Shown here one piece after another: positions 7,901-49,570 of a stretch of 64,000 nt of DNA (positions are counted from its first letter, which is position 1; every line of letters begins with the position of its first letter). Location: the IMG/VR virus record IMGVR_UViG_3300030330_003596; one strand, given 5' to 3'. This DNA comes from an uncultured virus (IMG/VR IMGVR_UViG_3300030330_003596) (taxonomy: Duplodnaviria > Heunggongvirae > Uroviricota > Caudoviricetes). Below the pieces are notes generated by a model. The model saw only the letters and a list, made by a program, of their open reading frames with translations. It searched no databases and was not told the DNA's origin. The position numbers and the translations under genes were made by a program.

Positions 7901-8631
7901 CTATGTGTGAATTTGCTATAATCAATAACCGTTTTTCCAAAGTCTTGAACTGTAACAAATGTTATTGAGGGGTCACTACTACTTAAAGTAAAACTGTTTG
8001 ATGTTCCTGATTCTCTCATAGCAAAATATTTAGTGTTGTGGTCTAATTCTTTTTCCTTATCTAACCCATCATAAAAATAAAATGATGGTCTAGCAACAGC
8101 AATATTTCTTGCTGGCTGGTCTTCCTGATTAGGAGTTAAAGCGGTGTCTTGAAGCAGACCTAAAGAAAGAGCAACAATATCTGTATTTTGTGTAACTTGA
8201 AATATAATGAATTTGGTATCTTTTGGTATTTCATTACCCAGTTTTGGTTCAAATTCAAAAGCATCGCCTATTAAATCCTCTGTTTTAACTTCGGTAATTT
8301 TAGCAAAGTGGTGCTGTAAAGGAGAATCCGAATATATAAGAACAAAGTAATCATTTGTTGTAAATTTTAGTGTTGTAGCATTCCAATCAGTTGGATTAAA
8401 TCTAACACCTGTCGTAGTTAAAGAATCATAACATTTGATTCTAAATCCTTTTGTATTAGCAAGATTAGAATTTTCAGTAACGGTTCCGCCAAAACCAGTA
8501 ACAGATACAGAAACTCCACCATGTTTAACAATAGCAGTATTGATTCTGTCTCCGTTGGAAAAACCACCGAAAGAAGATAGATGTGGATTTGTTGGTGCAT
8601 TAAAGTCATCCCCAGTAACTCTCAAACTCAT
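1975..8631 (-). CDS. Large tail tip / hub-central fibre protein
   Basis: 2218 aa downstream of the tape measure gene; hub-like C-terminus (LRVGDIVTV...FIVLEMEH); beta-rich. Confidence 0.65.
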   Translation of the reverse strand: MSLRVTGDDFNAPTNPHLSSFGGFSNGDRINTAIVKHGGVSVSVTGFGGTVTENSNLANTKGFRIKCYDSLTTTGVRFNPTDWNATTLKFTTNDYFVLIYSDSPLQHHFAKITEVKTEDLIGDAFEFEPKLGNEIPKDTKFIIFQVTQNTDIVALSLGLLQDTALTPNQEDQPARNIAVARPSFYFYDGLDKEKELDHNTKYFAMRESGTSNSFTLSSSDPSITFVTVQDFGKTVIDYSKFTHRVKLTDKLRDLDAAQSTNYTSNENYSATADTTNYNLTYVNARRISDDEINSPAYTGPTRYLHYDFSPTKSNFLYNAYDHINTESIDGKGGFSETSIIDNARIIPRKIKEFTAYRARHNIHSSDLNEFFPLKATYDSSTSAFVFSFETEYDLGTVLNTGDEVKLGDKILIVNSFGTLFGTTQTITFQNDTSDPYARGEDDGIFTAQTVSPSSGEVLHRRAYNANDGTLMLDTHLLNGRFSKMYVSFTSLNHEGRFASVTACDAVKNMLTLSFGDDSYNTNPLSFTKGQYQLFIERFNGEIESIESKKENGQTIVEIKGRDKFNKLLSPIVNLNTLFSEDIIYSSNSPYNKLEELNSGDTHTIALGDTQIDLDVLIANTSVLEGRVFAGVRLFGPNGYVGEITNLSNHTSSTKRRLIITPAITELNSEALYIDTEKNYVLTKALGSNALATNKPSSLTGAANRGFVFTAGNKIKSIRKSATTTSSNTTVTVADTSDLLVGMEVKEHTFIPIGATIVSIDSDTTFTISSAATFNFTTDAVFFGGEDTSLIGTSQNTNEGAVGYAINSPSSISNDFAFQTLLKDEHGSAGKSSFDTVNTLIDFEIVSTAKKDNITEIELAPYIPITLGRKTDYHFTNEDNTFTAAGAVSVLHGSNTFDSLVSTNYSTYDLKRDDLIFVGNSSSTTTTGIKTFVGKITSFVVETYSDAGGTTIHEQKIRLDRAVHAFTVGEKLYIGTKKSNDLVFINGKHMWGGKINILPHPKSFNSISTTDKTNRGLVPLNLEELTGGRDYSRSYGQFYYKSKDFITGNFLTDNRSIANTNDVVVPKLYDNRSKLNYFTSNYQFKPNIASENLNEFNKTLSTYRTLPFDLRGLTTPYGASGTFRRIHDNEDDVFIKTGVADLLEAQYSNNDESASRLFLYTIGDILPYSSLRKDSIFNVDNKFNLSKYNLFLIENKEQKDSSLNTTNRLSLTDSNYQTVDFSTDIDISNLKRFGLMRLTELTFDFMFNRVNPEKPIKREIKDTIYSGIIGWEKVTLAGSGAISSIAKNSGNTADIITFTSNQTLDDGDFLFDSTSGHLIGTVTTGAGNGSNSLNPASPKTAFELTDFANFTRKNSGGFTATAPQNAVKYKFTVIDVDGRNRVDTFARVGNGRLHPLKCAIVPSDTGYGDDVNDWLYEYARNVAFPANANDEIYLPFVNDKFSDFAQIDAADLTDLFFFTNLFPHLNNTLYYGMLGVSLDRFSIEDGGASQVEVGATTGVLKNTNTVEHVDGTGTSMKPFSTKHFTIESDTHFKEFKNRFDDEALIGSDFTTSKPYAVDGSYMVFKPRLCIPSYTQNCTKQGNTTLTVADSSVLSSGMVVAGTGIPTGTKISSITNTTTVVLDTAATDSNTDSLTFTYDVDETSSKSSNGTVYEYDFDLDNITASGTVPVIQNQFLKLTDITGCYLAIESGKHTDGTDITFSTSTPTATTSSLNIGKRMNNVVPNNLIYVISHEVNSSDANSHKIVTDTPLSSNSAYRILQPNETCIYDFFPDKILLNTLSSSYTKIPNSNEVYKPKQDYTSREGITKEAGNTTENEGVLSMFVLVDTDKQSTDNHLVLRDSKNFMQTNFPNGDYNLYFSDGDENKKITVTSSNSENFSSFALGEGFNGKGVVSVSETFTVNSRKELKISPNRACIGTTVSIGLEGEDLINELLETEEIQFQTTGTDTPMFLAPNYQGVDLYSAINYILDKKDMKILEENDVFKIAPEDENEYYTDITIDDSGDYLISEFEKQTTLFDFFNEIIVYGSSHKATRKDIRSINSRGRKTLEVVDGTLLTQEEVDKRATKLLRIHSRFNQKLSFTMQNKGINQLRVGDIVTVSLPRENIETGEFIVLEMEHQLTGFIKLQLGRYTKDLSDIFSELLIASKETKSALRSADLTSNEVSFNFLDTLNTKELKLLVRKRSSTGAALGFTTPLGFGLPLGFGAGTITITDLAEEDLA

Positions 8632-13367: not shown

Positions 13368-14987
13368 TCACCCCTGTAAAACCCAATGAGTTTTTACAAC
13401 GCAACCATCTGTTGCTAAGTTTCTTGGCATAACTGTTGCTTCAACAACAATTGGGCCTTTATCGTCTGGAATTGGGAAATTATTTGCACTAATGAAATAA
13501 TCATCGAATTTCAAAGTGATGCTTTCTCCATTTGATTTAGTAAAAATTAACTCAATAGTTTGAGTGGTATTTTCTGAATCATTCAAAAGAGCAGTATAAA
13601 GAGCATCATCGGTTACATGGCCTGTAAATGAAATTTCATACGTTCTTTGTGCAGGAATTGCTTCTTGTATGTCCTTTCCTCCCATTCCTAAAAATCTTCG
13701 GTCTTGAAGATTATTGTTCATGGTTAGTGTTAAAGTATTAATTTTTAAGAAATTATTTCCTAATACCTTAAATGTTCCATCTGAGAAAAAGAATGGTTCT
13801 CTCATTTGGTCAGTATTTGTGCTGCTTTCATAATTGAAGAAAGAAGTTTCAGCATCAACGCCTCTTCTTGCATCATATCGTTCACCTTGTGCTAAGTCAT
13901 GAACATTTTTGGTACTTAAATCAAGAGTCATTTTTACTTCTTCATTCTCGTTAGCGGTCATTGTCAAAGTATTTACTCGACAACCTCTTGCAATCTTTAC
14001 AAAATTTAAATCTTCTGCTTGCGAAGCAGTATTTGTTCTGTATTGATTAGTGCCAGTTAGTTTAGAAAGATTTTGTTCTAAAGCAAAGGAAGGCAATAAA
14101 TCACCATCCTGTTCTTTGAAGGTGTAAGTAATTGCGTCAGAAATTGTTGTTGAACCACTTGCTCTTGTTAATGTGACCATATCATTTAAAGTATGCAAAT
14201 GTGGAGCAAGTGGAGGACAAAATTTATTACCGATTGTTCTAAAGAAAAGAGGGCCAGTTTCACTAACTCCTGCAATATCTACTCCTGTTCCCGCAGAAAC
14301 TCCTGTTCCTTCAATAAAGATTTTATTATTATCTGCACCACCGCCTACTGCATAGATACTAGGAGTTCCGCCACCAACTCCCGCAACAGTAGCATTTACC
14401 TTATCACACTTTCCTAAGAAATAATAGAACCATGCAGCATGATTAGAAACAAAAGCAAGATTACCTCCACTAAAAGAAGTAATTCCTTTATATTGGTAAG
14501 TATAGTTTCTTGAACCACCGAGAGATAGATTTAATTGTTTCATTTCAACTTCTGTTGTTGGGAAGGTAGCACTTTCAAGAATACCTAACCATTCATCAGA
14601 TAAAAGTCTCTTAGTGGCTGTTCCTCCAGTTCCGTCCTTAACGGCAGGAACAGGCGCACCATATGATTTGATTACAAAATATGAACCTGCGGCAATATCT
14701 GTTAAACTGGGAGAAAATTTGATGTCATCTAAAGTGTTTGAAGAAACTCTATGTACTGATTGTAGTTCGTTACTGGAGTTATAAAATTCCAATAAACAGC
14801 CTTTATACAAATCAGTTACTAATAGGAAGGAAGAAGTAAAATCGCTATCTACTCTAATTTCATCAACTTCTCCTCTTCCTCCATTGAACGCTAAGCCGCT
14901 TGTATGCTTTCCACCAACATAAATATCATTTTCTGGTATAAATGTAATACTTGCTCCGCTTCCTAAAAATATTTCTTCATTTGCCAT
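13368..14987 (-). CDS. Major tail tube protein
   Basis: 539 aa; ARGCRVNTLTMT...TLTMNNNL...RTYEISFT pattern of siphoviral tube proteins; position. Confidence 0.75.
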   Translation of the reverse strand: MANEEIFLGSGASITFIPENDIYVGGKHTSGLAFNGGRGEVDEIRVDSDFTSSFLLVTDLYKGCLLEFYNSSNELQSVHRVSSNTLDDIKFSPSLTDIAAGSYFVIKSYGAPVPAVKDGTGGTATKRLLSDEWLGILESATFPTTEVEMKQLNLSLGGSRNYTYQYKGITSFSGGNLAFVSNHAAWFYYFLGKCDKVNATVAGVGGGTPSIYAVGGGADNNKIFIEGTGVSAGTGVDIAGVSETGPLFFRTIGNKFCPPLAPHLHTLNDMVTLTRASGSTTISDAITYTFKEQDGDLLPSFALEQNLSKLTGTNQYRTNTASQAEDLNFVKIARGCRVNTLTMTANENEEVKMTLDLSTKNVHDLAQGERYDARRGVDAETSFFNYESSTNTDQMREPFFFSDGTFKVLGNNFLKINTLTLTMNNNLQDRRFLGMGGKDIQEAIPAQRTYEISFTGHVTDDALYTALLNDSENTTQTIELIFTKSNGESITLKFDDYFISANNFPIPDDKGPIVVEATVMPRNLATDGCVVKTHWVLQG

Positions 14988-17029: not shown

Positions 17030-18650
17030 TCATTCTCTTTAATTTTCTTACATTCTTTTTGAGTTTATTTGTGTAAGTAACCATACTTCTGTTTTGTCTT
17101 GAACGAGAACCGCTTAGGTTATATTCACCATGCTTAGTCGCTTCAAATGTTAATTCGACGTATGCTTCTCTAAAAGCATCTTTAAGGTCTTCTGCACGAA
17201 CAGTTTCGGCCATTACCTCTTCTTCACCAAATTCAGCAGAATCTTTTGTGCTTTTAACTCCACCTTCACTAATCTCATAATACCTAATTTCAGACTTATA
17301 GTTTTCTTTTTCTTCTTTTGGTAATTTAGCATATTCTTTTTCAGAAATAAAAACTGGGTTTCCATCCTCATCTTTTTCTGTCTTATGACTAAATGCTCTT
17401 TTAGATTGCTCATCAATCATAGATTGAGTTAATGGTTTTCCTTCTTTTCCTGTTTCTACATCCATTACTCGTAAATCTTCTGCTGCTTCAGTAGCAAACT
17501 CTCTATATGTTGGCGCAGTTTTCTTTTTGGTTCTAATATTTCCAATGACCTTAAAAGAATAAACTTCATCAGGAATAACTAAAAATGGTCTAAGTATTCT
17601 CATAATAATATTTTTAACTGCTTCATCTTTAAAGAAGCCTTCAATTGTTCCTGCTCCATCTCCTTCAAATTTAAGATAGGCTTGTTTGTCTGATTCACCT
17701 TGAGGAGTAAATTGATATGTATAATATTTATCTCCGATTTGAATAATATCTTCATCTCTCATTTCATCGGTTCTATCTAAACTGTCTGTTGCGGCTTGAA
17801 CAACATAGTTGTTTATTTCATCGTCAGTATCATCTGAAATCGGAATCTTTTCACCAACGGATTCAAATTCACCATCTTCATTTATTATGGCTTCAGTAAC
17901 ATAGTTATCTTGTGCAGATTCTATATCTAATTTTTGTAAAACAGATTCAGGAATATTAAAAGAGTAATCAATTACTTCCTTTGCAATATTTATTTTTGTA
18001 TTGCTCGGTCTATAACCTGCTTCTTGACCTGTTGTTTCTAAGATAAAATCAGCCTTTACTTTTTCTAAATCACCGTAATCAAATGCAGGAAACTTAGCCT
18101 CAATGTGTCCTTTAAGGCCACTTCGGGCAGGTTGGTGAGAATAATTAAATCTATCATTATATCTTGCGTGTTCTCTAAAAAGAAGTTCAAAGGCAATTTG
18201 GGGTTCTTTTCCATATGCTGAAAAAAAATCATCAAAATCAAAGTCAGGTAGTTTGGTTTTACCACCACGAATAAAAGAAACATCCGTTCCTCTTAATCTG
18301 CCAATAACTTTTCCACTAGTAATATCTCCAACTTTTTTATCTTCAATAAAAGAAAGATTTGCTTCATTAGGACTTTTATCTCTCTTACGAGAAAATATTT
18401 TCCATGAATCAGTATCTCTTTCTAAGATTGGCTTTAAAGGTTCATCAAGAACTTTTTCTAAGATTTTGGTTAATTCACTCTTTAATGCAGCACTATTTGG
18501 CTCACTATCTTCAACGCTTTCTTTTGCTTTTCTCACTCTACGACGAAATTCTTTATTACCGTCAAGAATGTAGTTTTTCATCTGCGTTTCAATAAAAGAC
18601 GCTGAACGGGGCAAACTAAGAGTCTGCTTACCCCAATTGAAATTAACCAC
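17019..18650 (-). CDS. Hypothetical protein
   Basis: 543 aa acidic ORF, no recognised motif. Confidence 0.6.
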   Translation of the reverse strand: MVNFNWGKQTLSLPRSASFIETQMKNYILDGNKEFRRRVRKAKESVEDSEPNSAALKSELTKILEKVLDEPLKPILERDTDSWKIFSRKRDKSPNEANLSFIEDKKVGDITSGKVIGRLRGTDVSFIRGGKTKLPDFDFDDFFSAYGKEPQIAFELLFREHARYNDRFNYSHQPARSGLKGHIEAKFPAFDYGDLEKVKADFILETTGQEAGYRPSNTKINIAKEVIDYSFNIPESVLQKLDIESAQDNYVTEAIINEDGEFESVGEKIPISDDTDDEINNYVVQAATDSLDRTDEMRDEDIIQIGDKYYTYQFTPQGESDKQAYLKFEGDGAGTIEGFFKDEAVKNIIMRILRPFLVIPDEVYSFKVIGNIRTKKKTAPTYREFATEAAEDLRVMDVETGKEGKPLTQSMIDEQSKRAFSHKTEKDEDGNPVFISEKEYAKLPKEEKENYKSEIRYYEISEGGVKSTKDSAEFGEEEVMAETVRAEDLKDAFREAYVELTFEATKHGEYNLSGSRSRQNRSMVTYTNKLKKNVRKLKRMIGV

Positions 18651-18660
18651 TTATTTCACC

Positions 18661-19320
18661 TCACATGAGCCATTTTGCCCAAGCAGCACCTTTTTGAATT
18701 GCTGAACCTAATCCCAAACCACTTGTAGGTGGTTCATAACTCATTTGTCCTTGAGCATCAATCCAGTAAGGACGGCCATATCCATCTGTTCCCGATGGAG
18801 GAACAGGATAGCCTGAACCATTATTCATAGCACCCTGCATTTGAGCATATTGTTGCTGATTGCCAGTAATTCCTGCAATTGCTGATGCTGCGGTTGGCTG
18901 CGTAATTTGTTGTATTCCATTACCACCACCAAAACCTTGAGATTCGAGATATTGTTGTTTGGCCATCTTTCTTTGCATAATAACTTCACTATTGATAGCC
19001 GATTGCAATAACTTTTGAATATCTAAATCAATATTTTCTTGAGTAATTCTTTCATATTCTCTCATAGCATCAGGATTTACAGAAATGATGTTTCCATTTT
19101 GACTAAATGCTAATTTACCTAGCATTTGAGAAACTACTCGTTCAACAACATCTTCCATTAACTTTTCAAGAGCAACCAAGAATTGTTCTCCATGATATTG
19201 AAAGAACTCTTCAACGTGATTTTCCTGTAAAGATAATAAGTTATTTACTGTCTTAAATTGTGCGTCTGATTGTTGCTGAACTGCTCCTAAAACTGTTTTA
19301 TTGCTTGTTCCAAATACCAT
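18661..19320 (-). CDS. Gln-rich coiled-coil protein (GTPase module)
   Basis: 219 aa; C-terminal amphipathic GLGSAIQKGAAWAKWLM. Confidence 0.6.
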   Translation of the reverse strand: MVFGTSNKTVLGAVQQQSDAQFKTVNNLLSLQENHVEEFFQYHGEQFLVALEKLMEDVVERVVSQMLGKLAFSQNGNIISVNPDAMREYERITQENIDLDIQKLLQSAINSEVIMQRKMAKQQYLESQGFGGGNGIQQITQPTAASAIAGITGNQQQYAQMQGAMNNGSGYPVPPSGTDGYGRPYWIDAQGQMSYEPPTSGLGLGSAIQKGAAWAKWLM

Positions 19321-19322
19321 AT

Positions 19323-20003
19323 TTATGCCTCCTTAACTACTTCTTCCTTTGCTTCTTCTTGCGGTAATTCATTTTGTGCTTGAACATTGTGCTTAAGCAT
19401 TAAATGATTGAGTCTTTCCGTCATAATATTTATTTCTGTAATCAAACGAATGACTTCATCCGTTGCCGTCTTTGAATCTCCTAATGCGGGTGGGGTTATA
19501 AACCATCCTGCTGATGTAAGGCTCATAACATCTTCTTTGCTTAAAGTCTTAATTGGCCCACCTTTAAGAATTTTAGGCATTCGTGGTTTGAAGGCACTAA
19601 ATTCTAAACCGTGCTTATCAGCAAGTATCTGTTGTTGTAGCATTTCTAATTGAACGTAAATAGAAGCATGCTTAGGACAATAAGTTCCCATTAGTGGTCG
19701 TCCTTTGACTACACCATCTAAAGGCATAGGTGGACGCATATAATCTCCTTGTTCCCAAACATGATGAAAACCGCAGACAACACACCTATCTTTAAGATTA
19801 AACTTTTTTCCATACTTAATACCTAAAAACTTCTTTGGTTCTGCTTTTAGAACCAATTTAAGTTCTTTTAATTGAGCCTTAGGTTTGTATGAAATAAACT
19901 TGTATTCTTGCACAACACCGCTTGCTCTTGCCTGTTTAAGTGGCGAAAGAGAAGGATTAAATTGTTGTGGTGCAGTTTGTCCTATAATATTATTTTGATA
20001 CAT
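19323..20003 (-). CDS. Putative Zn-binding protein (GTPase module)
   Basis: 226 aa; CVVC...CPKH motifs. Confidence 0.55.
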   Translation of the reverse strand: MYQNNIIGQTAPQQFNPSLSPLKQARASGVVQEYKFISYKPKAQLKELKLVLKAEPKKFLGIKYGKKFNLKDRCVVCGFHHVWEQGDYMRPPMPLDGVVKGRPLMGTYCPKHASIYVQLEMLQQQILADKHGLEFSAFKPRMPKILKGGPIKTLSKEDVMSLTSAGWFITPPALGDSKTATDEVIRLITEINIMTERLNHLMLKHNVQAQNELPQEEAKEEVVKEA

Positions 20004-20008
20004 AATAA

Positions 20009-20689
20009 TCAGTAGTCCTTTATCATTGTAGTAATTCCTCTATAAACCATTTCGGGGTCAGACTTTGCAGATACAATATATTTGAAACATGGTATTCCTT
20101 TATCGTTTAACTTTCTCATACCGTATTTAAATGGTTCAAAAATCTCATGTTTATCTATTTCTTGGCCTTCTGCTAACGGGTATTTTTTCCCCCAAATGTC
20201 ATATTTATTTGCCCAAATACCTATTGCGATTGGATAATCAGATTCTCTTTTCTTTTTTCCATTCGACCATCTGTTTGAAATTATTGAATCGACTAAAAAT
20301 TTCCATGCTAATTGGTGGTCTAAGTTAATTTCATTATCTAAATGTCGGTGGTCAATCATAAAAACAACGTATTTTACTCTTCGGTTTTGCATGTCTTTTT
20401 CCCATTCTTTCCAGTAAATTGCTTCTCCACCAATATCTGCACTTCTTACTGTATGAGAATTACCGTCTATTTTAACATTTTTTCTCGTTGCTCTATGTCG
20501 CCCAACAGTTCTTTCGTTAATTTGTGGCACTTCTCCTCTCGTTCTTAACTGATGACTTAATGTTGTTTTACCAACCATTGTTGCCCCATAAACTCCAAAA
20601 TTAATGGCGTGAACCTTTTTGTAGAATCCTATAATTGCTTCACCGACAAGAATAGCAAATCCTGTCATTAATGACATTAATGCCCCCAC
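20009..20689 (-). CDS. Ras-superfamily (Arf/Sar/Rab-like) small GTPase
   Basis: G1 GATMVGKTT, G2 ERTVG, G3 DIGGE, G4 NKYD, G5 SAK; hydrophobic N-terminal helix. Confidence 0.85.
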   Translation of the reverse strand: MGALMSLMTGFAILVGEAIIGFYKKVHAINFGVYGATMVGKTTLSHQLRTRGEVPQINERTVGRHRATRKNVKIDGNSHTVRSADIGGEAIYWKEWEKDMQNRRVKYVVFMIDHRHLDNEINLDHQLAWKFLVDSIISNRWSNGKKKRESDYPIAIGIWANKYDIWGKKYPLAEGQEIDKHEIFEPFKYGMRKLNDKGIPCFKYIVSAKSDPEMVYRGITTMIKDY

Positions 20690-20895
20690 CCGTTAAGGAG
20701 AGTATCAAAAAGCCAACCCATGACATTAATATCAAAAACACCTAAAATGTTTCCAACAAGAAAACCTGAAAGACAGGCACATGAACCCCAAAAAAGCATT
20801 CGCATCTTCAAAAAAAAGATGTCAGCAGAATGCGCTCTTTGCTGATTGTAAGCGTAGTCTGAATCAGAAAAGCCCATTATGTCGCCAAAGACCAT
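20677..20895 (-). CDS. Small membrane protein
   Basis: 72 aa; hydrophobic MLFWGSCACLSGFLVGNILGVF stretch. Confidence 0.6.
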   Translation of the reverse strand: MVFGDIMGFSDSDYAYNQQRAHSADIFFLKMRMLFWGSCACLSGFLVGNILGVFDINVMGWLFDTLLNGWGH

Positions 20896-20906
20896 TCTTT
20901 CACCGC

Positions 20907-21290
20907 CTATTGAAGTGCGGCTAAGAACTCATTACCAACGCTATTCTCTTCTTCTTGCTGAACAGGTTGATAAAAGGTAGTATTATATTGTTTTGCACTT
21001 TCACGCATCTTTTGTTTTTGTTGTTCATCCCTAGCCTTTCTTTCCCAGTATGCCGCAATTTTACGGTCTAAGAGCCAAAGTTCTATTCTATCATTGAGTG
21101 ATAAATCAAAGATTGCTTTCATAACCATAATTGCACCAATTGTTCCTAAACCAAATAGAACAGAATGGGCTAATGGGCCATATGGGAAATTCATTCCAAA
21201 TGCTGCATATGCCCAAACATTTGTTCCGCTTAATGCACCGACAAATAGAATTGTCATAATTAGACGAGTATCTTGACTTAATGCTGCCAT
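20907..21290 (-). CDS. Two-TM membrane protein with C-terminal coiled coil
   Basis: 127 aa; two hydrophobic segments followed by a charged helix. Confidence 0.65.
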   Translation of the reverse strand: MAALSQDTRLIMTILFVGALSGTNVWAYAAFGMNFPYGPLAHSVLFGLGTIGAIMVMKAIFDLSLNDRIELWLLDRKIAAYWERKARDEQQKQKMRESAKQYNTTFYQPVQQEEENSVGNEFLAALQ

Positions 21291-21299
21291 ATAATCACC

Positions 21300-21617
21300 T
21301 CAAGCGAACTCAACTGAAACTGCCGCACCTGTTCCCGCACCTGTGGATATTTCTAAAAATAATCCATTAGAAGCAATTACACCATGCATATCAAATTCAA
21401 ATGTTGAACTGTTATAAAGCGTTGGGTCGGCTGGATTGGGGGCTTGAAGAATTATTCTTGCTAATTCTTTACCACTTGCCGCAGTATTATCAAATACCTT
21501 AACAGTAGTTATTCCTGTTGTTCCAGTATATTGAGCATGAATGCTAATTAATTTACATTGTCCATTAAAAACTAATGAACTGGCCGTTAATACTCCGCTA
21601 CTTCTGCAACTCGGCAT
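21300..21617 (-). CDS. Small beta-rich virion protein
   Basis: 105 aa; VKVFDNTAASG motif of a type common in marine virus head-decoration genes. Confidence 0.5.
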   Translation of the reverse strand: MPSCRSSGVLTASSLVFNGQCKLISIHAQYTGTTGITTVKVFDNTAASGKELARIILQAPNPADPTLYNSSTFEFDMHGVIASNGLFLEISTGAGTGAAVSVEFA

Positions 21618-21678
21618 GATTCATCACTCTCGCTCAAACTGTCTATGAGGCATCACCCTCTTAACCCTATCGCTAAGA

Positions 21679-21999
21679 TTATTCAGTCAAAGACGACTTT
21701 TTGCTCTTAGCAGGGCTTTTCTTAGATTTAGCCTTAGCGGGAAGAAGATATGCACACAGTTTATCATGTGTATCTAAATCCCTGCCTAAAGCCTTTCCTA
21801 ATCGAGTTAAAACAGAAGGGTCGATTTGCTTCAATTCTTTTCTTTCACTTTCAGCAAAAGAAATATCAAGACAATTATCGCCCAAATATCGTAAAGCGTC
21901 TTGGACAGGAACATCTAAAGAAATATCCCTTGCCAATAACTCTCCATTGACTAAGAGCGTTTTTGCCCTTGAGCCTTTGGTTAGTTTAATTGTTGCCAA
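21679..21999 (-). CDS. Hypothetical protein
   Basis: 106 aa with a GAGGTG RBS. Confidence 0.55.
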   Translation of the reverse strand: MATIKLTKGSRAKTLLVNGELLARDISLDVPVQDALRYLGDNCLDISFAESERKELKQIDPSVLTRLGKALGRDLDTHDKLCAYLLPAKAKSKKSPAKSKKSSLTE

Positions 22000-22009
22000 T
22001 TAAAACACC

Positions 22010-22385: not shown

Positions 22386-23738
22386 TCAAAGGAGATTGGT
22401 AATCTTTCCTTGACCCTTGAAGTAAGAACAACCAGTTTCACCCATTGTGCGATAAAGAGCCTTGTTTCCAAGATTACCAACACCGAATGGGTTTCCGTTG
22501 CTGATACCATCTTCAAAGTATTGTGTAGGCTTCATAACAGATAGCCACAAATGGTCAGTATCAAGGAAAAGCATATCGCTAATCAAACTTGAATTGTTTC
22601 CAGTTGAAGGCATAGCAGCAACAGGAATCAAAGGAATGTCGTAGTAGGTAGAAACACGGAATCCGACTTCTTGACCTTTAACACCACGAACACCATTAAC
22701 AGTAGGAACAATTTCCTTTCTATCCATGAATCGCTCTTGGGCTTGTAATAAGTCAGAAAGCGTTTGAAGGGTATCATATCCAGTAAGGATAACCTTTGGA
22801 GAACCACCTGCAACACGGAGTCTTCGGAGCATATCGTTAATAACCGTTAAGGTCAATTGTCGTGCTTCTGCTGAAAGGTAGCCATCACCAAAAGAAACTT
22901 CTGCATCTAAATACTCGTTTCCAGACGCACTTCGGAGTTTTCCGTAAAGAGTGTCAATTTGTTGGTCACTAGCAGAATCAACAAGGTTTCCACCAGAATT
23001 GTCAGCCAACTCAGTTATTTCAGCCGAGTTGCTTACAATCTTGAAAAGAGAAGTATATCCTCTATCAATTGCGTTTGCCGTGTTATAGGCCGTAGTTGGA
23101 GAATAGTTCTCCAATGGCATAACAAGCATGGTGTTTTGAACTTCTGCGTGGTGCTTGCCCATATCTTCTCTCAATTGCGCTCTAATATCACCGATACCAT
23201 CGTCAATTTGAGCCATTTCCATAGCCAATTCGCTGAAAGAGAATTGATGAGCAATAATCTTTGGACTCGTAAAGAGAACATCGTATTCGGGAGCAATTGA
23301 TTGAAGACCGTCTGAATCAGAATCTAATGAAGCATTTTCAGGAACACCACCGATTCGGTCTGCTCTCAAAGAATCAGCACCATAAAGCGCAGTATTGAGA
23401 GTTGTGTTGGAAGCGGCAGAAATGTCCAAGAAGTTTCCTGCTCCACCTGCGGGTCTTTTCTTCAAAATTCTCCAGCCACTTGAAGAATATGGTCGCTTTG
23501 CGATAACAGACAATGCGTTGCATTCTCGGTTTAACATAGACCATACCTTTTGGCCGTAAATCTTGTTGTAAAGATTTGCGTTAATACCTGTTGGGTCGCT
23601 TAATGCGCCATCGTGAGCGACATGAATGCCACTAACGGTTCCTGCCGCTTTAAGCAACTGGTTGCTAATATGCCCAGTTGCGCCCGTTCCGTATGTTTGT
23701 GCTTCTAAATCTGCAATTGTGTTAATATATCCAACCAT
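22386..23738 (-). CDS. Major capsid protein (HK97 fold)
   Basis: 450 aa after the prohead protease; PKVILTG...YYDIPLI...FLDTDHL pattern; strong GAGGTGA RBS. Confidence 0.85.
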   Translation of the reverse strand: MVGYINTIADLEAQTYGTGATGHISNQLLKAAGTVSGIHVAHDGALSDPTGINANLYNKIYGQKVWSMLNRECNALSVIAKRPYSSSGWRILKKRPAGGAGNFLDISAASNTTLNTALYGADSLRADRIGGVPENASLDSDSDGLQSIAPEYDVLFTSPKIIAHQFSFSELAMEMAQIDDGIGDIRAQLREDMGKHHAEVQNTMLVMPLENYSPTTAYNTANAIDRGYTSLFKIVSNSAEITELADNSGGNLVDSASDQQIDTLYGKLRSASGNEYLDAEVSFGDGYLSAEARQLTLTVINDMLRRLRVAGGSPKVILTGYDTLQTLSDLLQAQERFMDRKEIVPTVNGVRGVKGQEVGFRVSTYYDIPLIPVAAMPSTGNNSSLISDMLFLDTDHLWLSVMKPTQYFEDGISNGNPFGVGNLGNKALYRTMGETGCSYFKGQGKITNLL

Positions 23739-23749: not shown

Positions 23750-25009
23750 TCAAAGGTTTCCTCCAACCATCTTATGAATGTCAGCCCAATCCATTTCGGC
23801 TAATTCATCCATTGTAGGGAGTTTGATAGTGGCTTCTTCTTGAGCCTTTAGAATTGTTTCCTTCTCAGTCGTCAAAGACTTTCGGAGGGAAGCAAATTCA
23901 TTCTTAAGAGAAGCAATTTCGCTTTGTGCATCATATTGCGACTTTGCGAGAACGTCTTCTCTTTGAGAAGTTTCAGCGTTAAAGCGAGCCTCAAATTGCT
24001 TTTGAAGGTTATCGTAAGCCAACTTTTCAAGTTGTTCTTGTCGGAAAGCCTCATAAGCCTTCTCAATGTTTCCAACAGACAAATCAAGGGTTTCAAGTTC
24101 ATCGTTGTTAAATGCCTTAACTACTGGTAAATCAGTAGCCTTTGGTCGGCCTCCTTCAATAACGATTCTATCGGCAGGTTCACCGATTTCAACACCCGCA
24201 CCATCAAGGGTAGGAACATAGGCTTTTCTCTCTTCGTCATCCATCATTTCCTCATCCTTCATCTTTTCAGACATCATTTTGTCTTTATCGGGCATCATCT
24301 TTTCTTCATCCTTCATTTTTTCATCCATCAACTTTTCAGACATCATTTTATCTTTGTCGTCCGTCATGTCCATGCTTTCTTCTTCTTCTTTTCTTAGCAT
24401 ATTGACTTCTTCCATAAGAGCGTCAAGTTCTGCTAATGCTTTTTCTATTTTGGTCATTTTTTTCACCTTTTTTGTTTTTTCTTGCTTTAATATGTCAAAC
24501 TTTGCTTCTGGATTAATTCCTTTTTCACAAATAGTGACTTCATGTAATTCTAACTTTGAAATTTCGTTGTATTGCCCAAATTCGTTATTGGTTTTCTTTA
24601 CCTTTTCTAAAGCCTGTCCTCCAATACTGAAACTTCTTAATGAACCTTTTCTAATGCCACGATTAATTTCTTTGGCCTTTTCTATATCGTCTCTTAATTT
24701 AATAACTACGAAGAATCCAACATCATCTACTTCTGTTTTAAACAATCTCCCTGTTTTATCTCGGTATGATTCTACTACTTCTCCGACTTGAACATTTGAA
24801 TGATTTGTCATTACATTTCTAAACTTCGGGTTCTCCATGTATTTATTAACCGCTTCTTTAAGGGCTTTTAATGTGATTAAATCATTTTGCTTATCAACGA
24901 TTTCAATGCTTGCATATCCTCCAATCATTAAATCGTCTTGGCTCTTGAGAATTTTGAAATCCGAAGTGTTGTTTCGCATCACCGCAGAAGACATTCTTCT
25001 CAACCCCAA
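23750..25009 (-). CDS. Prohead protease fused to scaffold
   Basis: IGGYASIEIVDKQND...H...SFSIGG...ELHEVTICEKGINPEAKF HK97-type protease, followed by an acidic coiled-coil scaffold. Confidence 0.88.
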   Translation of the reverse strand: MGLRRMSSAVMRNNTSDFKILKSQDDLMIGGYASIEIVDKQNDLITLKALKEAVNKYMENPKFRNVMTNHSNVQVGEVVESYRDKTGRLFKTEVDDVGFFVVIKLRDDIEKAKEINRGIRKGSLRSFSIGGQALEKVKKTNNEFGQYNEISKLELHEVTICEKGINPEAKFDILKQEKTKKVKKMTKIEKALAELDALMEEVNMLRKEEEESMDMTDDKDKMMSEKLMDEKMKDEEKMMPDKDKMMSEKMKDEEMMDDEERKAYVPTLDGAGVEIGEPADRIVIEGGRPKATDLPVVKAFNNDELETLDLSVGNIEKAYEAFRQEQLEKLAYDNLQKQFEARFNAETSQREDVLAKSQYDAQSEIASLKNEFASLRKSLTTEKETILKAQEEATIKLPTMDELAEMDWADIHKMVGGNL

Positions 25010-25039: not shown

Positions 25040-27586
25040 CTATTCTTCAGTAGGAAGGGGTAATTTGTTATACCTATCTTCATAAATATTCCACTTTCCT
25101 TCATCCCCTTCCTTATCAGCAGGAGTTTGTTTATATCCAGTCCATGCAAGCCACATTTTTTGTCCATCTACATCTAAGACTCTATAATGCATTTTAGTTT
25201 CAAACTTGTTGCCTTCTAAGAAATATTCATGGTAGCCATCTCTTTGAATACCTAATTTTATTTTACCAGAATCAACGACCTTTCCTTTAGTTACAGTCTT
25301 TGCTACTTCTGCTGGATATTTACCAGCAGCCCCGAATAAATCAAACAATTCTTCTTCATTCTCAATATCAATTGTCCAGAACATATTTTCTGTCTTTAGT
25401 TTAATTGCTAAAGTTAAATTATCATCTTCTCTAGCGTATAATTTAAATTCACCTTCTCTTAATTCGGGAGGTGTTTTATATTCTCCTTCAACCGCTTTAA
25501 TATCTTCTTTCATGATTTCTTCTTCCTGCATAATTTTATCATCATCAGCAGAAATTTTTCCTTCTTTTTCACTAATGCCATCTCTAAGAATTATCCACTT
25601 CTTTAACTTCTTTACATCAGATTCAAGAACATCTTCGTATAAATCTTTATGTTCTTTCACCAAAAAGTTATGTAGTTCTTTAGGAGTTTTATCTCCACTC
25701 ATTTTTAAGTATTGGAAGGAAGCCACAGTCAAATCACTTTGCTTGGACTTCATAATATCAATCGCTTGTTGCTTCCACATATCTAAGTCCATTGTGGCAT
25801 TCTTAGACATTAAATTATCTTTTTCATATCCATAAATAGTAAAGCCATCTAAATCATATTTGATAATTACATTGGCTTCTCCATGAATATGGTCTGTTAT
25901 TTTAACACCTTTTGTAAATGCCTCAACATCATAATTTAAAGACTTCTTGGTGTCTTGAGAAAGTAATTCTAATGTGACTAATTTATCAGGGTGTTCTACT
26001 TCAGGTATCTCAATAGGTTTCGCTGAGAATAAACTAAACCCTTCTCCTTTCTTTTTGACTTCATCAACCTTTACTCGGATAATTTCCCCAATATCAACTG
26101 CGATTTTTGTATTCAATGCTTTGCCTACATTCAAATAATGCCTCTTATTTATTTCAACAGCACCAGTCATTTCTTCATCAACTGGCCCAACTCCAACAGT
26201 ATAAGAATAAAGATTACTTTTTGTCTTTTTCTTATCTAAAACAATAACATCTAAATCAACAAACTTCTTTAACTTAATCCATTTAGGATTTTTCTTTGTT
26301 CCAATATAATATGTTGAAGTAGAGTCTTTGATAACTACTCCTTCAGATGTAGGAATTTCCATCATTTCTTCAGCATATTTTTCAATATCCTTTAAGTTAT
26401 CTGCTTGGCGAGTATCTTTCTTTGATGGATAAGCAATTGCTTCTCCTGATTTAGAAGAATAGTTGTTGAATAAAATTGTCATTCTATTTTCTAATTCTTC
26501 ATCTGCTAATGTTTGTGCTTCATGCCTAATAATATCAAAAACATGGCACTTTAATTTAGCCTCTTTATATTTATCTTTGAATACATGAGCGATAGTATCT
26601 GCTCTATGGAGAGGTTCATCTCCGTCAAAGAGAACTAATTCTCCATCGAAAATACAATCACCGTATTCTTTCTTTTTTAATTCATCAACCTGTTCTTTAC
26701 ATTTACTAGAAATGTCTTTACCGTTATAAGAATAAATAGTAACCTTATTATCTATTTTATGTAATTGTACTCTCATGCCATCATACTTTTCTTGAACATA
26801 CCAATTGCCACTAAAGCCTTTTAATTCCTCAATGTCCTTAACTTCAAAAATTCTATACATTGGTTTATTAGGAACAATAAATTGAGAGATAGATTTTTTC
26901 TCATCATTAGGAACAGACTTCTCTACTCCCTCAATATCTTTCAATTCTTCCCAATCCTTCTTTTCATTCTTAGAAAAGAAAATTAGTTCTAACATATCCA
27001 TAGCAGCCTTTACTTTGGATTCGACCTTCTTTGAGTCTTTTCCATCCCCGTAATGCTCAATAATATAGAGGGCAATATCATCCGATTCTAAGTCAAGACC
27101 CTTAAGACCCTCCGTAATCGTGTCGGGTTGCATCCCTTTAACGCTGTAAATGTCATCAGATAGGGCTTTATTGTCATCCCTTAAAGCATAATGCACAAAT
27201 TTAACCATGCTTTCTGGATTATCCAATAATTCTTCAAGGACATTATCCTTGAACATAGATGCGAATGGGTCAGCGACAATAGGCGACGAATAGCGAAGCA
27301 ATTTTATTTTTTCATACAGTTCTTTCGCTTGTCTTGAAGTAGGGTCTTTTGTGTCCTTATCTTCTAAATCCTTCTCATCAATAAAGTTTCGCATTTCTTT
27401 TCCTGCGGCATCTGATTCTTCATATGATTCAGTAATCATATCTACGGCTTTACGCCAACGACCCGAATATTCTGTTGGGTCGTGAATAGCAGATAAATAG
27501 GCTACTCTTGTCTTTTCAAATAGACGAAGAATTTCTTGGGAAGGTTGCTTATCCTTCTCAATAGAAGCCAATTTCATACGAATCAT
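25040..27586 (-). CDS. ATP-dependent DNA ligase with N- and C-terminal extensions
   Basis: Motif I QEKYDGMR, III FDGEL, IIIa FDII, IV EGVVIK, V WIKLKK. Confidence 0.88.
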   Translation of the reverse strand: MIRMKLASIEKDKQPSQEILRLFEKTRVAYLSAIHDPTEYSGRWRKAVDMITESYEESDAAGKEMRNFIDEKDLEDKDTKDPTSRQAKELYEKIKLLRYSSPIVADPFASMFKDNVLEELLDNPESMVKFVHYALRDDNKALSDDIYSVKGMQPDTITEGLKGLDLESDDIALYIIEHYGDGKDSKKVESKVKAAMDMLELIFFSKNEKKDWEELKDIEGVEKSVPNDEKKSISQFIVPNKPMYRIFEVKDIEELKGFSGNWYVQEKYDGMRVQLHKIDNKVTIYSYNGKDISSKCKEQVDELKKKEYGDCIFDGELVLFDGDEPLHRADTIAHVFKDKYKEAKLKCHVFDIIRHEAQTLADEELENRMTILFNNYSSKSGEAIAYPSKKDTRQADNLKDIEKYAEEMMEIPTSEGVVIKDSTSTYYIGTKKNPKWIKLKKFVDLDVIVLDKKKTKSNLYSYTVGVGPVDEEMTGAVEINKRHYLNVGKALNTKIAVDIGEIIRVKVDEVKKKGEGFSLFSAKPIEIPEVEHPDKLVTLELLSQDTKKSLNYDVEAFTKGVKITDHIHGEANVIIKYDLDGFTIYGYEKDNLMSKNATMDLDMWKQQAIDIMKSKQSDLTVASFQYLKMSGDKTPKELHNFLVKEHKDLYEDVLESDVKKLKKWIILRDGISEKEGKISADDDKIMQEEEIMKEDIKAVEGEYKTPPELREGEFKLYAREDDNLTLAIKLKTENMFWTIDIENEEELFDLFGAAGKYPAEVAKTVTKGKVVDSGKIKLGIQRDGYHEYFLEGNKFETKMHYRVLDVDGQKMWLAWTGYKQTPADKEGDEGKWNIYEDRYNKLPLPTEE

Positions 27587-30594: not shown

Positions 30595-30926
30595 ATTTTC
30601 GCCTCCATTAAATTTCCTTGTGTTCTTTCTAAAATTTCAATAAGTTCTTCTTTTGACATTCTATAAATTTTTTCTGTAATAGCATCTACTAAATCTTCTC
30701 TTGTCATTTCAGCCAAATTATCCAATCTTTCTCCAAACATAGAATCAAATGAAGGGTCATCTGTTCTTCCTACGGGAGTTATGCTGGGCTTTCCACCAGA
30801 CATTCTTGTTTGTGGCTTTTGTCGAGATTTATCTCTAATTTGTTTTCTTTTACTAATTAATTCTCTCCAATTCATCTTAACCAACTCTCCTTTCTGTTCT
30901 TCTGTCGTTATTTTGATTTCCAGCAT
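30591..30926 (-). CDS. Hypothetical protein (likely true start MNWRELISK)
   Basis: ORF track; the internal Met just after the portal stop carries a W-tag variant. Confidence 0.55.
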   Translation of the reverse strand: MLEIKITTEEQKGELVKMNWRELISKRKQIRDKSRQKPQTRMSGGKPSITPVGRTDDPSFDSMFGERLDNLAEMTREDLVDAITEKIYRMSKEELIEILERTQGNLMEAKI

Positions 30927-32517
30927 CTAATGGCAATCCCGACATCCTCTTATCGGGGGCTACGCTCATGGAGGGTTTATTTCTTGTGGTCGCAGGGTTC
31001 TCCTGTGGCTTACTTCCACCCTGTAAAGCCTGTTCCTGCATTTGACCCATTTGCGAAGCATCAATGTTTGTTCCTGCATAGGGGTCAGTTTCCGTTTTTT
31101 CTTCTTCTCCCTGTCCTTCAGGTTTTTCTTCGGGTTCAGGTTTTTTAAACGTAAATTGACCATCTTCATCCATATCAACTTCAAATCCTAAATTTTTTGT
31201 TGATGCAGCGATATTGACTTCAATCTCACGCTTACGAAGAACTGCGATTTCATCCTCCTCTTCGCTTGGTGGTAGTTTTAAATTCCAATCTGTAATACCA
31301 AATTGTTTTACAAGGAATGGGAAAACATAATTATTATAGACAGTCTGTGCCTTTTGAACGGCTCTATTTGTAACAAGAATTTGCATACCTTCATTGTTTA
31401 ATCCACCGCTTGTGGTATTATCAGCCATGAATACCTTGCTTACACCATAAAATGCTGAGATTCTATCTCTCAAATCATCCTTAACAGACACATAATCCAT
31501 CTCTTTGAGACTGTCCATGAATTTAATCCATTCAACCGCACCTTTTCCTCCTTCGGCTTCAATTCCCATAACAGGAATAAAGTGCGGGTCTGCCTCCATT
31601 TTTTCTTTTACTGAACGCCAAAAGGAACGCATTGAATCCATATTTCTGGTTTGAACTGCAAGTAACCCTCTCGGCATTCTACTCTTAGTATATGATTGAT
31701 TAACATAGTTCTCCATAGCAATAAGAGTCATAATATTATTAAACAAAGTAATAACTGGAGACATACCATAAAGACGAGAAGGACTATATTTACTAAAGTG
31801 CAACACTTCTCCTTTCAAAAAGTGTTGGTCATCTCCTTTTACTCTATTAACATAATGAACAGGAAATAGACTACTACCGCAAACTTCACATTTTTCATGC
31901 GGGTCTTTATGAATAACACCACGATGATTTACACAGGTAAATCCTTTCGTTCCTCTTTGTCCATTTTCATCACTATAAATAAACATAGTAACTGGGTCGC
32001 CCCGATAAACTTCTTTAATGCGGTGCATTCTAATTTTACCATTGCCATCAATAAAATACTCTTTAACAAGAACGATGTAAGCATCATCCATAATGTTTAA
32101 ATCATCTTCAAGTTCCTGCAATACATCAATAAATAATTGTTCAGATTTATTTACATAACCTTCAATGAATTTCTCAGCGTATTCTAATTGTTTAACATCA
32201 GGAATTTTTAAATCAGAAGATTCACACCTTGAACATTCTTGGACTGGTCTTTTATGTTCTTTACCACAATTATTACATCTTGCTTCATATGCCTTTTCCC
32301 AAACATAACCTCTTCTGAATACTTCTTGTTTTAACTGAGTAATACAAGTTCTCGCAATAACTGATTGATTAACAATATTATAGATAATTGGGCCAGTCAT
32401 CATGTGATTGGTTTCTCTTTCCTGAATACCCATATTGTAGACTTTTCTATCGGCAGGTTTAGGAGTTTGTCTCCTAAACAAGTTAGTGATACTAAATCTT
32501 CTTTTTTCTTCAACCAT
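30877..32517 (-). CDS. Portal protein
   Basis: 546 aa; EVLHF...LYGMSPV...PRGLL...RISAFYGVSKVFM HK97-type portal pattern; between terminase and protease. Confidence 0.85.
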   Translation of the reverse strand: MVEEKRRFSITNLFRRQTPKPADRKVYNMGIQERETNHMMTGPIIYNIVNQSVIARTCITQLKQEVFRRGYVWEKAYEARCNNCGKEHKRPVQECSRCESSDLKIPDVKQLEYAEKFIEGYVNKSEQLFIDVLQELEDDLNIMDDAYIVLVKEYFIDGNGKIRMHRIKEVYRGDPVTMFIYSDENGQRGTKGFTCVNHRGVIHKDPHEKCEVCGSSLFPVHYVNRVKGDDQHFLKGEVLHFSKYSPSRLYGMSPVITLFNNIMTLIAMENYVNQSYTKSRMPRGLLAVQTRNMDSMRSFWRSVKEKMEADPHFIPVMGIEAEGGKGAVEWIKFMDSLKEMDYVSVKDDLRDRISAFYGVSKVFMADNTTSGGLNNEGMQILVTNRAVQKAQTVYNNYVFPFLVKQFGITDWNLKLPPSEEEDEIAVLRKREIEVNIAASTKNLGFEVDMDEDGQFTFKKPEPEEKPEGQGEEEKTETDPYAGTNIDASQMGQMQEQALQGGSKPQENPATTRNKPSMSVAPDKRMSGLPLDAGNQNNDRRTERRVG

Positions 32518-49465: not shown

Positions 49466-49569
49466 TTCTTATCACCTGTAATCAAGTCTTTCTGTTGTTT
49501 TTCTTCTTCTTTATCTAAACGCTTTGATTCAACATCAAACCATTTATCGAGTAAGGTGCATCTTGTCAT
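49462..49569 (-). CDS. Small hypothetical protein (35 aa)
   Basis: MTRCTLLDKWFDVESKRLDKEEEKQQKDLITGDKK; translated by hand, coupled to the next gene. Confidence 0.45.
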   Translation of the reverse strand: MTRCTLLDKWFDVESKRLDKEEEKQQKDLITGDKK

Positions 49570-49570
49570 A

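Follow-up and report, generated by a model that had tools for sequence, protein, structure and literature searches.

What is a Ras-like small GTPase doing among the structural genes of a tailed virus? The question arises from a stretch of DNA of 64,000 nucleotides (nt) from an uncultured member of the Caudoviricetes (IMG/VR record IMGVR_UViG_3300030330_003596; this whole stretch, at its full length, is referred to below as the window). An initial annotation, made from the sequence alone, had drawn attention to five consecutive genes at positions 18661 to 21290, encoding two small membrane proteins, a small GTPase, a protein with paired Cys/His residues and a Gln-rich protein; all five open reading frames (ORFs) are present there, on the minus strand. 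Our best reading is that together they make up a self-contained membrane module, specific to viruses, with an Arf-like molecular switch at its centre. Since the GTPase is 78% identical to gp088 of Poseidoniales virus YSH_150918, and the remaining close relatives are marine metagenome sequences, the window is, by sequence relationship, that of a magrovirus-like tailed virus of the Poseidoniales (marine group II archaea).

A complete small GTPase at the centre of the module

The GTPase gene (20009-20689, minus strand, as for all module genes) encodes 226 amino acids (aa) from a GTG start, comprising an Arf/Arl-like G domain preceded by a hydrophobic N-terminal anchor. The true start is probably the ATG at 20677, giving 222 aa, because this codon overlaps the stop codon of the upstream 72-aa gene (TAATG) and most orthologues begin with MSLM or MSVM. 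The complete set of G1-G5 motifs read by the initial annotation is there, in canonical order and spacing: the G1 or P-loop GATMVGKTT (residues 35-43, 20561-20587), the G3 or switch-II motif DIGGE (residues 85-89, 20423-20437), the guanine-specificity motif G4 NKYD (residues 161-164, 20198-20209) and G5 SAK (residues 207-209, 20063-20071). In 34 aligned relatives (69-91% identity), none of these motifs varies, nor does the switch-I residue Thr61; G1 and NKxD are retained in 133/133 distinct sequences (63 from group A, the lineage of the window, and 70 from the distant groups B and C described below). The fifth residue of G3 is where the groups diverge. Group A has DxGGE in 63/63 sequences; the 70 sequences of groups B and C are made up of DxGGQ (43), DxGGE (14), DxGGD (6), DxAGE (4) and DxGGH (3).

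The AlphaFold2 model of the GTPase has a Ras-like alpha/beta fold (predicted local distance difference test score, pLDDT, 89.5; predicted template-modelling score 0.84). When searched against known GTPases, as the initial annotation had proposed, this model gave a Foldseek probability of 1.00 to both Rab and Arf chains, and Arf6 was the best VIA-align match (Z 18.9, root-mean-square deviation 2.4, 162 residues aligned). The first 31 ranks of that alignment were Arf/Arl chains (Arf6, Arl1, Arf1, Arl6 and Arl3; Z 18.9-17.9), with SRbeta at 17.9, a Lokiarchaeal RagA-like GTPase at 17.8, Asgard ArfR1 at 17.7 and Rabs at 17.1-17.6. Because Z differences under 1 count as ties, the Arf leaning of the predicted fold is slight.

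Sequence searches place the protein in the same superfamily from a greater distance. On its own, the GTPase sequence retrieved a single PDB protein, Rab33B, at an expect value (E) of 0.18; the family profile retrieved Rab33B, an Asgard GTP-binding protein, Arl3, Arl8 and KRas, at E 1.8e-8 to about 1e-6. The window protein stays under the curated cut-offs of MMR_HSR1 (PF01926; 20.0 vs 21.9 bits, E 7.7e-4), Ras (15.6 vs 21.6 bits, E 0.012) and NCBIfam TIGR00231 (21 vs 42.5 bits), and has no match to Pfam Arf (PF00025) at E <=1. Fourteen of 32 family members do match PF00025 at E <=1, four remote ones exceeding its cut-off of 22.3 bits (27.2, 57.2, 36.5 and 24.5 bits), and some database entries of the family have been named automatically as 'GTPase SAR1 family protein'. 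By its motifs and its predicted fold, the central protein is thus, far beyond chance, a genuine and complete Ras-superfamily small GTPase.

Predicted membrane attachment through the N-terminus

A hydrophobic N-terminal helix had also been described in the initial annotation, and it is borne out by both hydropathy and model. GTPase residues 4-22 (LMSLMTGFAILVGEAIIGF; 20624-20680) reach a 19-residue Kyte-Doolittle mean of 1.89, and the model has a helix at residues 2-26 (DSSP), with pLDDT 58-72 in that part. The analogy drawn there with the amphipathic helices of Arf and Sar1 did not survive: among 63 distinct group A sequences, the helix has an Eisenberg mean hydrophobicity of 0.70 and a hydrophobic moment of 0.17, i.e., it is uniformly hydrophobic, and for that reason resembles a transmembrane anchor rather than an amphipathic helix. 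As judged from sequence, it looks like a transmembrane-type anchor of the kind found in SRbeta. A mid-helix Glu17 is invariant in group A, and two Lys residues follow the helix, from which the G domain is predicted to be cytoplasmic.

The other attachment modes of the superfamily find little purchase here. Ras, Rab and Rho proteins attach to membranes through prenylation of a C-terminal Cys (CaaX or CC); no Cys occurs within the last five residues of the 133 distinct sequences (the window protein ends TTMIKDY), so lipidation in the Ras/Rab style is excluded. Arf proteins combine their N-terminal amphipathic helix with myristoylation at Gly2, and this Gly is absent from the viral protein, the probable start of which reads MSLM. 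A polybasic loop before beta5 is conserved in all groups, its 18 residues holding on average 4.2 Lys/Arg (group A) or 7.6 (groups B and C). Across the minus-strand ORFs at 226-47977, the GTPase and the two proteins encoded directly upstream of it are, besides the tape-measure protein, the sole ones with a segment of Kyte-Doolittle mean >=1.6.

Two membrane proteins upstream

These two upstream products are membrane proteins of 127 and 72 aa, as had been reported, with two hydrophobic segments and one, respectively. The 127-aa protein (20907-21290) has its segments at residues 10-28 and 43-61, followed by a charged, Lys/Arg/Glu/Gln-rich helix (RKIAAYWERKARDEQQKQKMRESAKQ) and a conserved C-terminal tail, EFLA.LQ. 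It matches no Pfam or PHROG family; in form, as far as its sequence can tell, it resembles a class II holin. PMC10791045 describes holins as small proteins that combine two hydrophobic segments with a C-terminal domain of high charge. The 72-aa protein (20677-20895) has its hydrophobic segment at residues 33-51, between a conserved polar N-terminus (D..GFSDSDYAYNQ.RAHSAD) and a Trp/Gly-rich C-terminus, and has no match among Pfam, PHROG or NCBIfam families.

Two conserved proteins downstream

Directly downstream of the GTPase in all groups lies the gene for a 226-aa Cys/His protein, here termed zinc-type (19323-20003), with the CxxC/CxxH pairs already noted in the initial annotation. Its alignment gives a putative metal site, C74-x2-C77 ... 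C109-x2-H112 (19668-19784), which encloses Arg102 and the GTYCP motif. Across groups, Arg102 is nearly invariant, and C74, G78, C109, GTYCP and P150 are fully so. The AlphaFold2 monomer model is poor (pLDDT 56.6). A profile of the family gathers 333 proteins; among the 120 matches listed, none has a Pfam domain or an informative name. An ArfGAP zinc finger was considered and rejected as the identity of this protein: that finger has the form CxxC-x16-CxxC followed by a catalytic Arg, the viral spacing is C-x2-C-x31-C-x2-H with Arg102 ahead of the second pair, and the ArfGap model matches 0/22 members.

The last gene of the module encodes a 219-aa protein (18661-19320) that is indeed Gln-rich, with 27 Gln residues in 219 (12.3%). 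It has a conserved helical centre, a low-complexity stretch rich in Gln, Gly and Asn, and a C-terminus specific to group A (GYGRPYWID...AIQKGAAWAKWLM), and matches no Pfam family at E <=0.1. In the ESM Atlas, the zinc-type and Gln-rich proteins retrieve unnamed clusters alone, at scores <=0.82.

The five genes are co-conserved in group A

The initial annotation had proposed that the genes belong together and that this should be visible as synteny in related viruses. Two sets of viral contigs bear on this: the 80 closest by GTPase (83-100% identity; the best 80 of 273 matching stretches), and, chosen to avoid selecting on the GTPase itself, the 80 closest by capsid protein, in which loci were scored only if they had >=5.5 kb downstream (n=32). 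All five genes are collinear in 67/67 GTPase-selected loci with enough flank, and all five are present in 32/32 capsid-selected loci. The outcome that the initial annotation would have taken as a refutation, a lack of co-conservation among relatives, was therefore not observed. The median identity of the GTPase in group A is 86%; in the 13 capsid-selected loci in which the capsid protein has drifted to <=75% identity, the GTPase is the more conserved of the two in every case (13/13, at 78-87%).

The tight coupling described for the window is real, the co-directional block that contains the module having gaps of 9-11 nt or overlaps. It is not obligatory: accessory ORFs are inserted at the junction of the 72-aa and GTPase genes in 10 loci, and at that of the GTPase and zinc-type genes in 17. 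ORFs inserted at these junctions are among those that open with a recurrent heptapeptide, MW[KEFW]x[IV][IL]K, shared by 43 otherwise dissimilar accessory ORFs (>=50 aa) in 30/179 loci. Three such ORFs are in the window, at 49771, 48846 and 34888 (all minus strand), and others include L015:5056-5691, L015:5706-5999, L062:6681-6986, L062:6983-7531 and L037:6666-7235; the heptapeptide could serve as a tag for targeting, or could be what a cassette or recombination boundary has left behind.

The RNA evidence is weak: one marine metatranscriptome run contained 5% of sampled words, and an 837-nt contig of a relative from an RNA library (63 differences) covers 20346-21182, so that the 72-aa gene is included completely, the 127-aa gene for the most part and the GTPase gene in part; this contig proves neither transcription nor a single transcript.

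Setting of the module in the window

The minus strand carries the genes from 223 to 49465 of the window, and the late structural block is readily recognised on it: large terminase (36998-38428; phrog_38, E 3.6e-55), portal (30877-32517; phrog_18178, E 4.7e-65), prohead protease (23750-25009), major capsid protein (22386-23738; Pfam SU10_MCP, E 3.7e-6, and phrog_24667 'major head protein', E 9.3e-20), tail tube protein (13368-14987; Pfam Phage_tube_2, E 2.1e-15, and phrog_290), tail assembly chaperone and tape-measure protein. The order in group A is protease, capsid, three small genes, the module and then tail genes, all co-directional, and in the window the module is packed closely together with the late structural genes. 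The initial annotation had put the module between capsid and neck genes. The capsid gene is indeed upstream, with the match to SU10_MCP and phrog_24667; the neck is another matter, in that the downstream ORFs of 543 and 437 aa have no neck identity, phrog_17057 (unknown function) being their sole match. That no holin or endolysin could be recognised is consistent with the PHROG scan, in which no lysis-category family appeared among the 73 window ORFs.

The surroundings of the module (18000-22000) are free of Rfam families, tRNAs and notable repeats. A bacterial-type promoter scan gave 23 sites, vs 31.8 in shuffles, with a model that is inapplicable to archaea, and the ten terminator-like sites predicted are uninformative.

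Distant groups carry the module at other genomic positions

Full-length relatives at about 22-35% GTPase identity keep the motifs and fall into two further groups: group B, with 127 viral stretches (of which the best 80 are loci L081-L160), and group C, with four loci (L161-L164). In both, the GTPase gene is followed by adjacent homologues of the zinc-type and Gln-rich genes. Profile comparison of groups A and B by hhalign supports each of the three relationships, with probabilities of 100% for the GTPase, 97.1% for the zinc-type protein (E 7.1e-11) and 88.9% for the Gln-rich protein (E 2.4e-6). In both groups, two small membrane-protein-like ORFs precede the GTPase, and in form they resemble those of the window. 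The positional counterpart of the 127-aa protein is of ~190 aa, with two hydrophobic segments and a charged, Gln/Met/Glu-rich helix; that of the 72-aa protein is of ~82 aa, polar at its N-terminus and Trp-rich at its end, with a single hydrophobic segment. Group B has, in addition, an 80-90-aa protein with two hydrophobic segments, encoded after the Gln-rich gene.

What differs between groups is the address. Three group B genomes of 92-118 kb (G002, G003 and G005) share with the window their portal (46-49% identity), terminase (37-39%) and main capsid match (42-47%); their GTPase gene precedes the terminase by 7.0-7.7 kb and the portal by 9.8-10.6 kb, with the module about 20-23 kb from the capsid gene. 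In 27/70 group B/C loci, the third ORF upstream from the GTPase gene, which directly precedes the membrane-protein pair, has >1,500 aa. In size, these ~2,000-aa ORFs recall a giant ORF of 2218 aa in the window; the latter (1975-8631, minus strand) terminates the tail gene block, and has no Pfam family and a weak C-terminal PHROG match.

In group C, the pair of small ORFs ahead of the GTPase is itself directly preceded by a thermosome gene; this group II chaperonin (Cpn60_TCP1) is encoded at L161:4250-5785 and L164:3820-5481 (E 5.5e-133 and 1.7e-140). The 110-kb group C genome that was searched has no portal, capsid or terminase similar to those of the window. Hidden Markov models of the genes that flank the module in group A (the 543-, 437-, 105-, 106- and 121-aa ORFs and the capsid gene) found no match downstream of group B/C modules. 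The claim that the module is inside a virion gene block thus stands for group A and fails for groups B and C, where it is 7-8 kb upstream of the terminase gene (three group B genomes) or next to a thermosome gene (group C). Because genomic position differs across groups, the five genes would be best described as a self-contained module moving as a unit. In the cultured halovirus HVTV-1, the capsid protein of which is 25% identical to that of the window, eight genes separate the capsid gene from that of the tail assembly chaperone, and none of the eight has a P-loop; the module lies outside the virion architecture shared with that cultured relative.

The GTPase family itself is, by sequence searches, narrow and virus-borne, and is restricted to the viruses of a single host lineage. 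An exhaustive HMMER search of 1.84 billion representatives returned 63 proteins at E <=0.001, none of them a canonical cellular GTPase. Among 185,579 species genomes there were two GTPase loci, both in one metagenome-assembled genome labelled Maricaulis; its two contigs (L166 and L167) carry GTPases of 86% and 64% identity, and are most likely mis-binned viral contigs. Remote relatives of the GTPase are singletons on contigs of 1.2-11 kb; one of these relatives (P0165) gave no viral locus, and another (P0172) found itself alone. That small GTPases are unusual in tailed viruses, as had been remarked, agrees with the failure of tblastn to match the GTPase anywhere in 50,697 phage records, and with a BFVD fold search in which the matches listed (the best 50) were all Ras, Rab and Ran types from giant eukaryotic viruses.

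Comparison with known GTPase and lysis systems

Several known systems share part of this design. In Arf-type proteins the G3 motif is DxGGQ, in Sar1 it is DxGGH, the DxGG type is also that of G-alpha, and Ras and Rab have DTAGQ. With the Arf/Arl/Sar1 proteins, the viral family shares its best fold matches (Arf6, Arl1, Arf1, Arl6 and Arl3 at Z 18.0-18.9, with Asgard ArfR1 at 17.7), a G3 broadly of their type (DxGG plus Gln, His or Glu), and an N-terminal helix for membrane contact. It differs from them in the uniform hydrophobicity of that helix, in the Glu that group A has in place of Gln/His, in extra insertions in the G domain (one that follows NKxD, and the polybasic loop ahead of beta5), and in a G5 SAK as in Ras/Rab; moreover, the window protein on its own is missed by the Arf model.

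SRbeta has an Arf-like G domain held by an N-terminal transmembrane helix, and its chain 2fh5_B (Z 17.9) is tied with the top fold matches. Pfam SRPRB (PF09439) is matched by 15/32 viral family members at E <=1, the best of them reaching 22.5 bits against a cut-off of 25, with no match for the window protein. The viral anchor is likened to that of SRbeta by hydropathy alone (1.89 followed by two Lys, and weaker, at 1.19, in groups B and C); no SRalpha-like partner or signal recognition particle context was seen, and the neighbouring genes differ.

A parallel in layout comes from Euryarchaeota. In PMC10927574 (Mills et al. 2024), the Haloferax Arf-like GTPase ArvA is described as driving vesicle formation together with Zn-ribbon and SepF-like proteins. 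In the ArvABC (OapABC) operon, as in the viral module, the gene for an Arf-like GTPase, which has a membrane-seeking helix at its N-terminus, comes before those for a Zn-binding protein and for another small protein. Like ArvA as described in that paper, the viral GTPase has PF01926 as its best Pfam match, and its family leans toward Arf. A role in deforming the cell membrane has been demonstrated experimentally for ArvABC (PMC10927574). The viral module adds two membrane proteins. The Gln-rich and zinc-type proteins match no Pfam family of the ArvB kind (DUF2073, SepF-like) at E <=0.1. The resemblance to ArvABC is one of design, with membership unsupported since the zinc-type protein fails to match OapC.

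Lysis cassettes with holins offer a further comparison. In phages, such cassettes are typically found at the end of the tail genes or before the terminase. The 127-aa protein has the form of a holin, and the group B module comes after the ~2,000-aa ORF and upstream of the terminase, a typical site; unlike these cassettes, the viral module has no holin-family match and no endolysin nearby, and we know of no lysis cassette that contains a GTPase. As for the Ras/Rab/Ran GTPases of giant viruses, these too are virus-encoded members of the Ras superfamily (mimivirus Rab 5xc5, Z 17.6). They belong to viruses of eukaryotes, however, and are Rab, Ras or Ran types by name, whereas the present family is in tailed archaeal viruses, is N-terminally anchored and is without a close cellular counterpart.

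What the module may do for the virus

We tentatively favour, as the leading explanation, a late-acting, membrane-anchored GTPase switch for egress or host-membrane remodelling. When bound to GTP, the anchored GTPase would recruit, or be regulated by, the zinc-type and Gln-rich proteins, the former possibly serving as an effector, or as a GTPase-activating protein through its near-invariant Arg102. With the two-segment holin-like protein and the 72-aa protein joining it, the module would target the cytoplasmic membrane of the host at a late stage of infection, its most likely role being to time or execute the disruption or remodelling of that membrane for release of the tailed virion. We lean toward this function because no lysis gene is recognisable in the 73 ORFs, because the 127-aa protein has textbook holin form, and because the location in group B is typical of lysis cassettes. 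Two further reasons come from the literature: the statement in PMC10791045 that, in the egress of archaeal tailed viruses, 'the main players ... are still completely uncharacterized', and the precedent for membrane vesiculation by Haloferax ArvA as reported in PMC10927574. A bolder form of the same idea is that the module is the egress machinery of a major archaeal tailed-virus group, its Arf-like GTPase replacing or supplementing the holin clock as a viral counterpart of ArvA; this we regard as possible, if doubtful. Were it so, the zinc-type regulator, the Gln-rich partner and the two membrane proteins would decide when and where the membrane is breached or vesiculated.

A number of observations weigh against an egress or remodelling role, or against details of it. 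The computed results bear on identity and context, and function rests on inference from them. In group A the module is between capsid and tail genes, where assembly or virion proteins would be expected. Neither membrane protein matches any holin family in Pfam or PHROG, and no cell-envelope-degrading enzyme was found near the module in Pfam and PHROG scans. The upstream membrane proteins of groups A and B give hhalign probabilities of 4.3% (127-aa) and 10.7% (72-aa), with homology not demonstrable. Groups B and C have a much less hydrophobic helix than group A (mean Kyte-Doolittle 1.19 vs 1.85), and a true transmembrane anchor may therefore not be general. Since group A has Glu at the position of the catalytic Gln, hydrolysis may be slow or partner-dependent. 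The zinc-type protein belongs to no Pfam, PHROG or NCBIfam family, and its C77 is replaced by Asp or Thr in all seven distant-group members aligned. It was also considered as an ArvC/OapC protein and rejected: 0/22 members match PF09845 at E <=10, and the nearest viral genome (G001) lacks a match too, with the Haloferax and Methanosarcina controls matching as they should. Finally, the Gln-rich protein has a weak match over about 100 residues to phrog_14074, 'virion structural protein' (E 0.0046).

The group A position invites the thought that the anchored GTPase is a membrane-bound assembly platform or checkpoint, tethering or timing capsid assembly, packaging or head-tail joining. There is a precedent of sorts in phage T4, the prohead assembly of which begins at the membrane. 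Such a role would suit the location of the module inside the co-directional protease-capsid-tail block, with its overlaps and gaps of 9-11 nt, its standing as part of the core gene set of the group A lineage (32/32 loci), its adjacency to a thermosome chaperonin gene in group C, and a Gln-rich low-complexity protein that could be a scaffold. We nonetheless judge it rather unlikely, for in three group B genomes the module is far from the capsid and portal genes, HVTV-1 has no such GTPase between its capsid and tail genes, and the partners resemble no known scaffold, portal or connector family. The same position could instead mark the membrane proteins, and perhaps the GTPase, as ejection ('pilot') proteins, packaged and, upon entry, lodged in the host membrane to aid DNA delivery. 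In favour are the small membrane proteins within a structural gene block, the phrog_14074 match and the fact that podoviruses have the genes of their ejection proteins among those for head completion. That match is weak and short, however; the position of the module is not fixed relative to head genes, and a GTP-dependent switch inside a capsid makes little sense. Moreover, long-tailed viruses usually leave DNA delivery to the tape-measure protein, which here has four hydrophobic segments, and a role at entry is accordingly quite improbable in our view.

Attention may also be shifted from the virion to the host, in that the GTPase, without itself being the egress device, could hijack a host process at the membrane such as division, secretion, vesiculation or envelope biogenesis, mimic host signalling, or exclude superinfecting rivals. 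Its strong conservation (median 86%, and above that of the capsid protein in 13/13) would fit a conserved host partner; the confinement of the family to viruses (63 representatives in 1.84 billion, two loci in 185,579 species genomes) points the same way, as do accessory ORFs that recur at gene junctions as they would at accessory-gene hot spots. Exclusion and take-over genes are, however, usually early and poorly conserved, whereas the module consists of core genes that, in group A at any rate, are embedded in the late operon, and it shows no recognisable host-like partner domain; we hold this explanation to be unlikely. The least probable of the alternatives, to our mind, is that the protein is a degenerate pseudo-GTPase serving as a structural or adaptor subunit without nucleotide switching. 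Glu in place of the catalytic Gln in 63/63 group A sequences, and the scores of the window protein below Pfam and NCBIfam cut-offs, would be in keeping with degeneration; however, none of G1, the switch-I Thr, DxGG, NKxD or SAK has been lost, each being invariant across group A, and the persistence of G1 and NKxD in 133/133 sequences would be unexpected once nucleotide binding had been lost.

Other features of the window

Beyond the module, the structural block holds several genes of other kinds. A PAP2-superfamily protein of the lipid phosphate phosphatase type is encoded between terminase and portal (33720-34409, minus strand; Pfam E 4.2e-12), and could target host lipid carriers or the envelope. 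Between portal and prohead protease, an ORF of 848 aa (25040-27586, minus strand) has an ATP-dependent DNA ligase domain at residues 251-440 (E 5e-30). The 535-aa ORF adjoining the terminase (35381-36988, minus strand) matches an HNH endonuclease family (phrog_5046, E 4.7e-5), and a 150-aa ORF at the end of the window (63359-63811, plus strand) has a weak integrase PHROG match (E 1.5e-5).

The region at 49500-56000 is one of strand switch, with few long ORFs, no family matches, a G+C fraction of 0.418 at 52-54 kb (vs about 0.33-0.36 elsewhere) and a GC-skew sign that flips near 54 kb; it may be an origin or regulatory region. Two tRNA genes are on the plus strand, for Leu (anticodon TAA; 56112-56197) and Arg (anticodon TCT; 62565-62639).

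Novelty and significance

The GTPase family appears to be unremarked in print. The word 'GTPase' is absent from the main text of the papers on magroviruses and archaeal tailed viruses that were checked, the supplementary gene tables of which might list the family. Literature searches for magroviruses and GTPase returned nothing; to judge by titles and abstracts, those for Poseidoniales viruses and GTPase returned work on Asgard archaea and eukaryogenesis, and those for Caudoviricetes and small GTPases returned no description of such a gene, one item concerning haloarchaeal plasmids. What is new here is a family of Arf-like GTPases that is specific to viruses, anchored at the N-terminus and accompanied by partners of its own.

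For the gap in our understanding of how tailed viruses leave archaeal cells, the module provides concrete candidates, namely core genes arranged around an Arf-like switch, which are more conserved than the capsid protein in divergent relatives. Should the module prove to be egress machinery, it would be the first known GTPase-controlled release system in any prokaryotic virus. Ultimately, the family extends membrane-associated Arf-like GTPases to viruses of non-Asgard archaea, and so bears on how widely GTPase-driven membrane remodelling had spread before eukaryotes.

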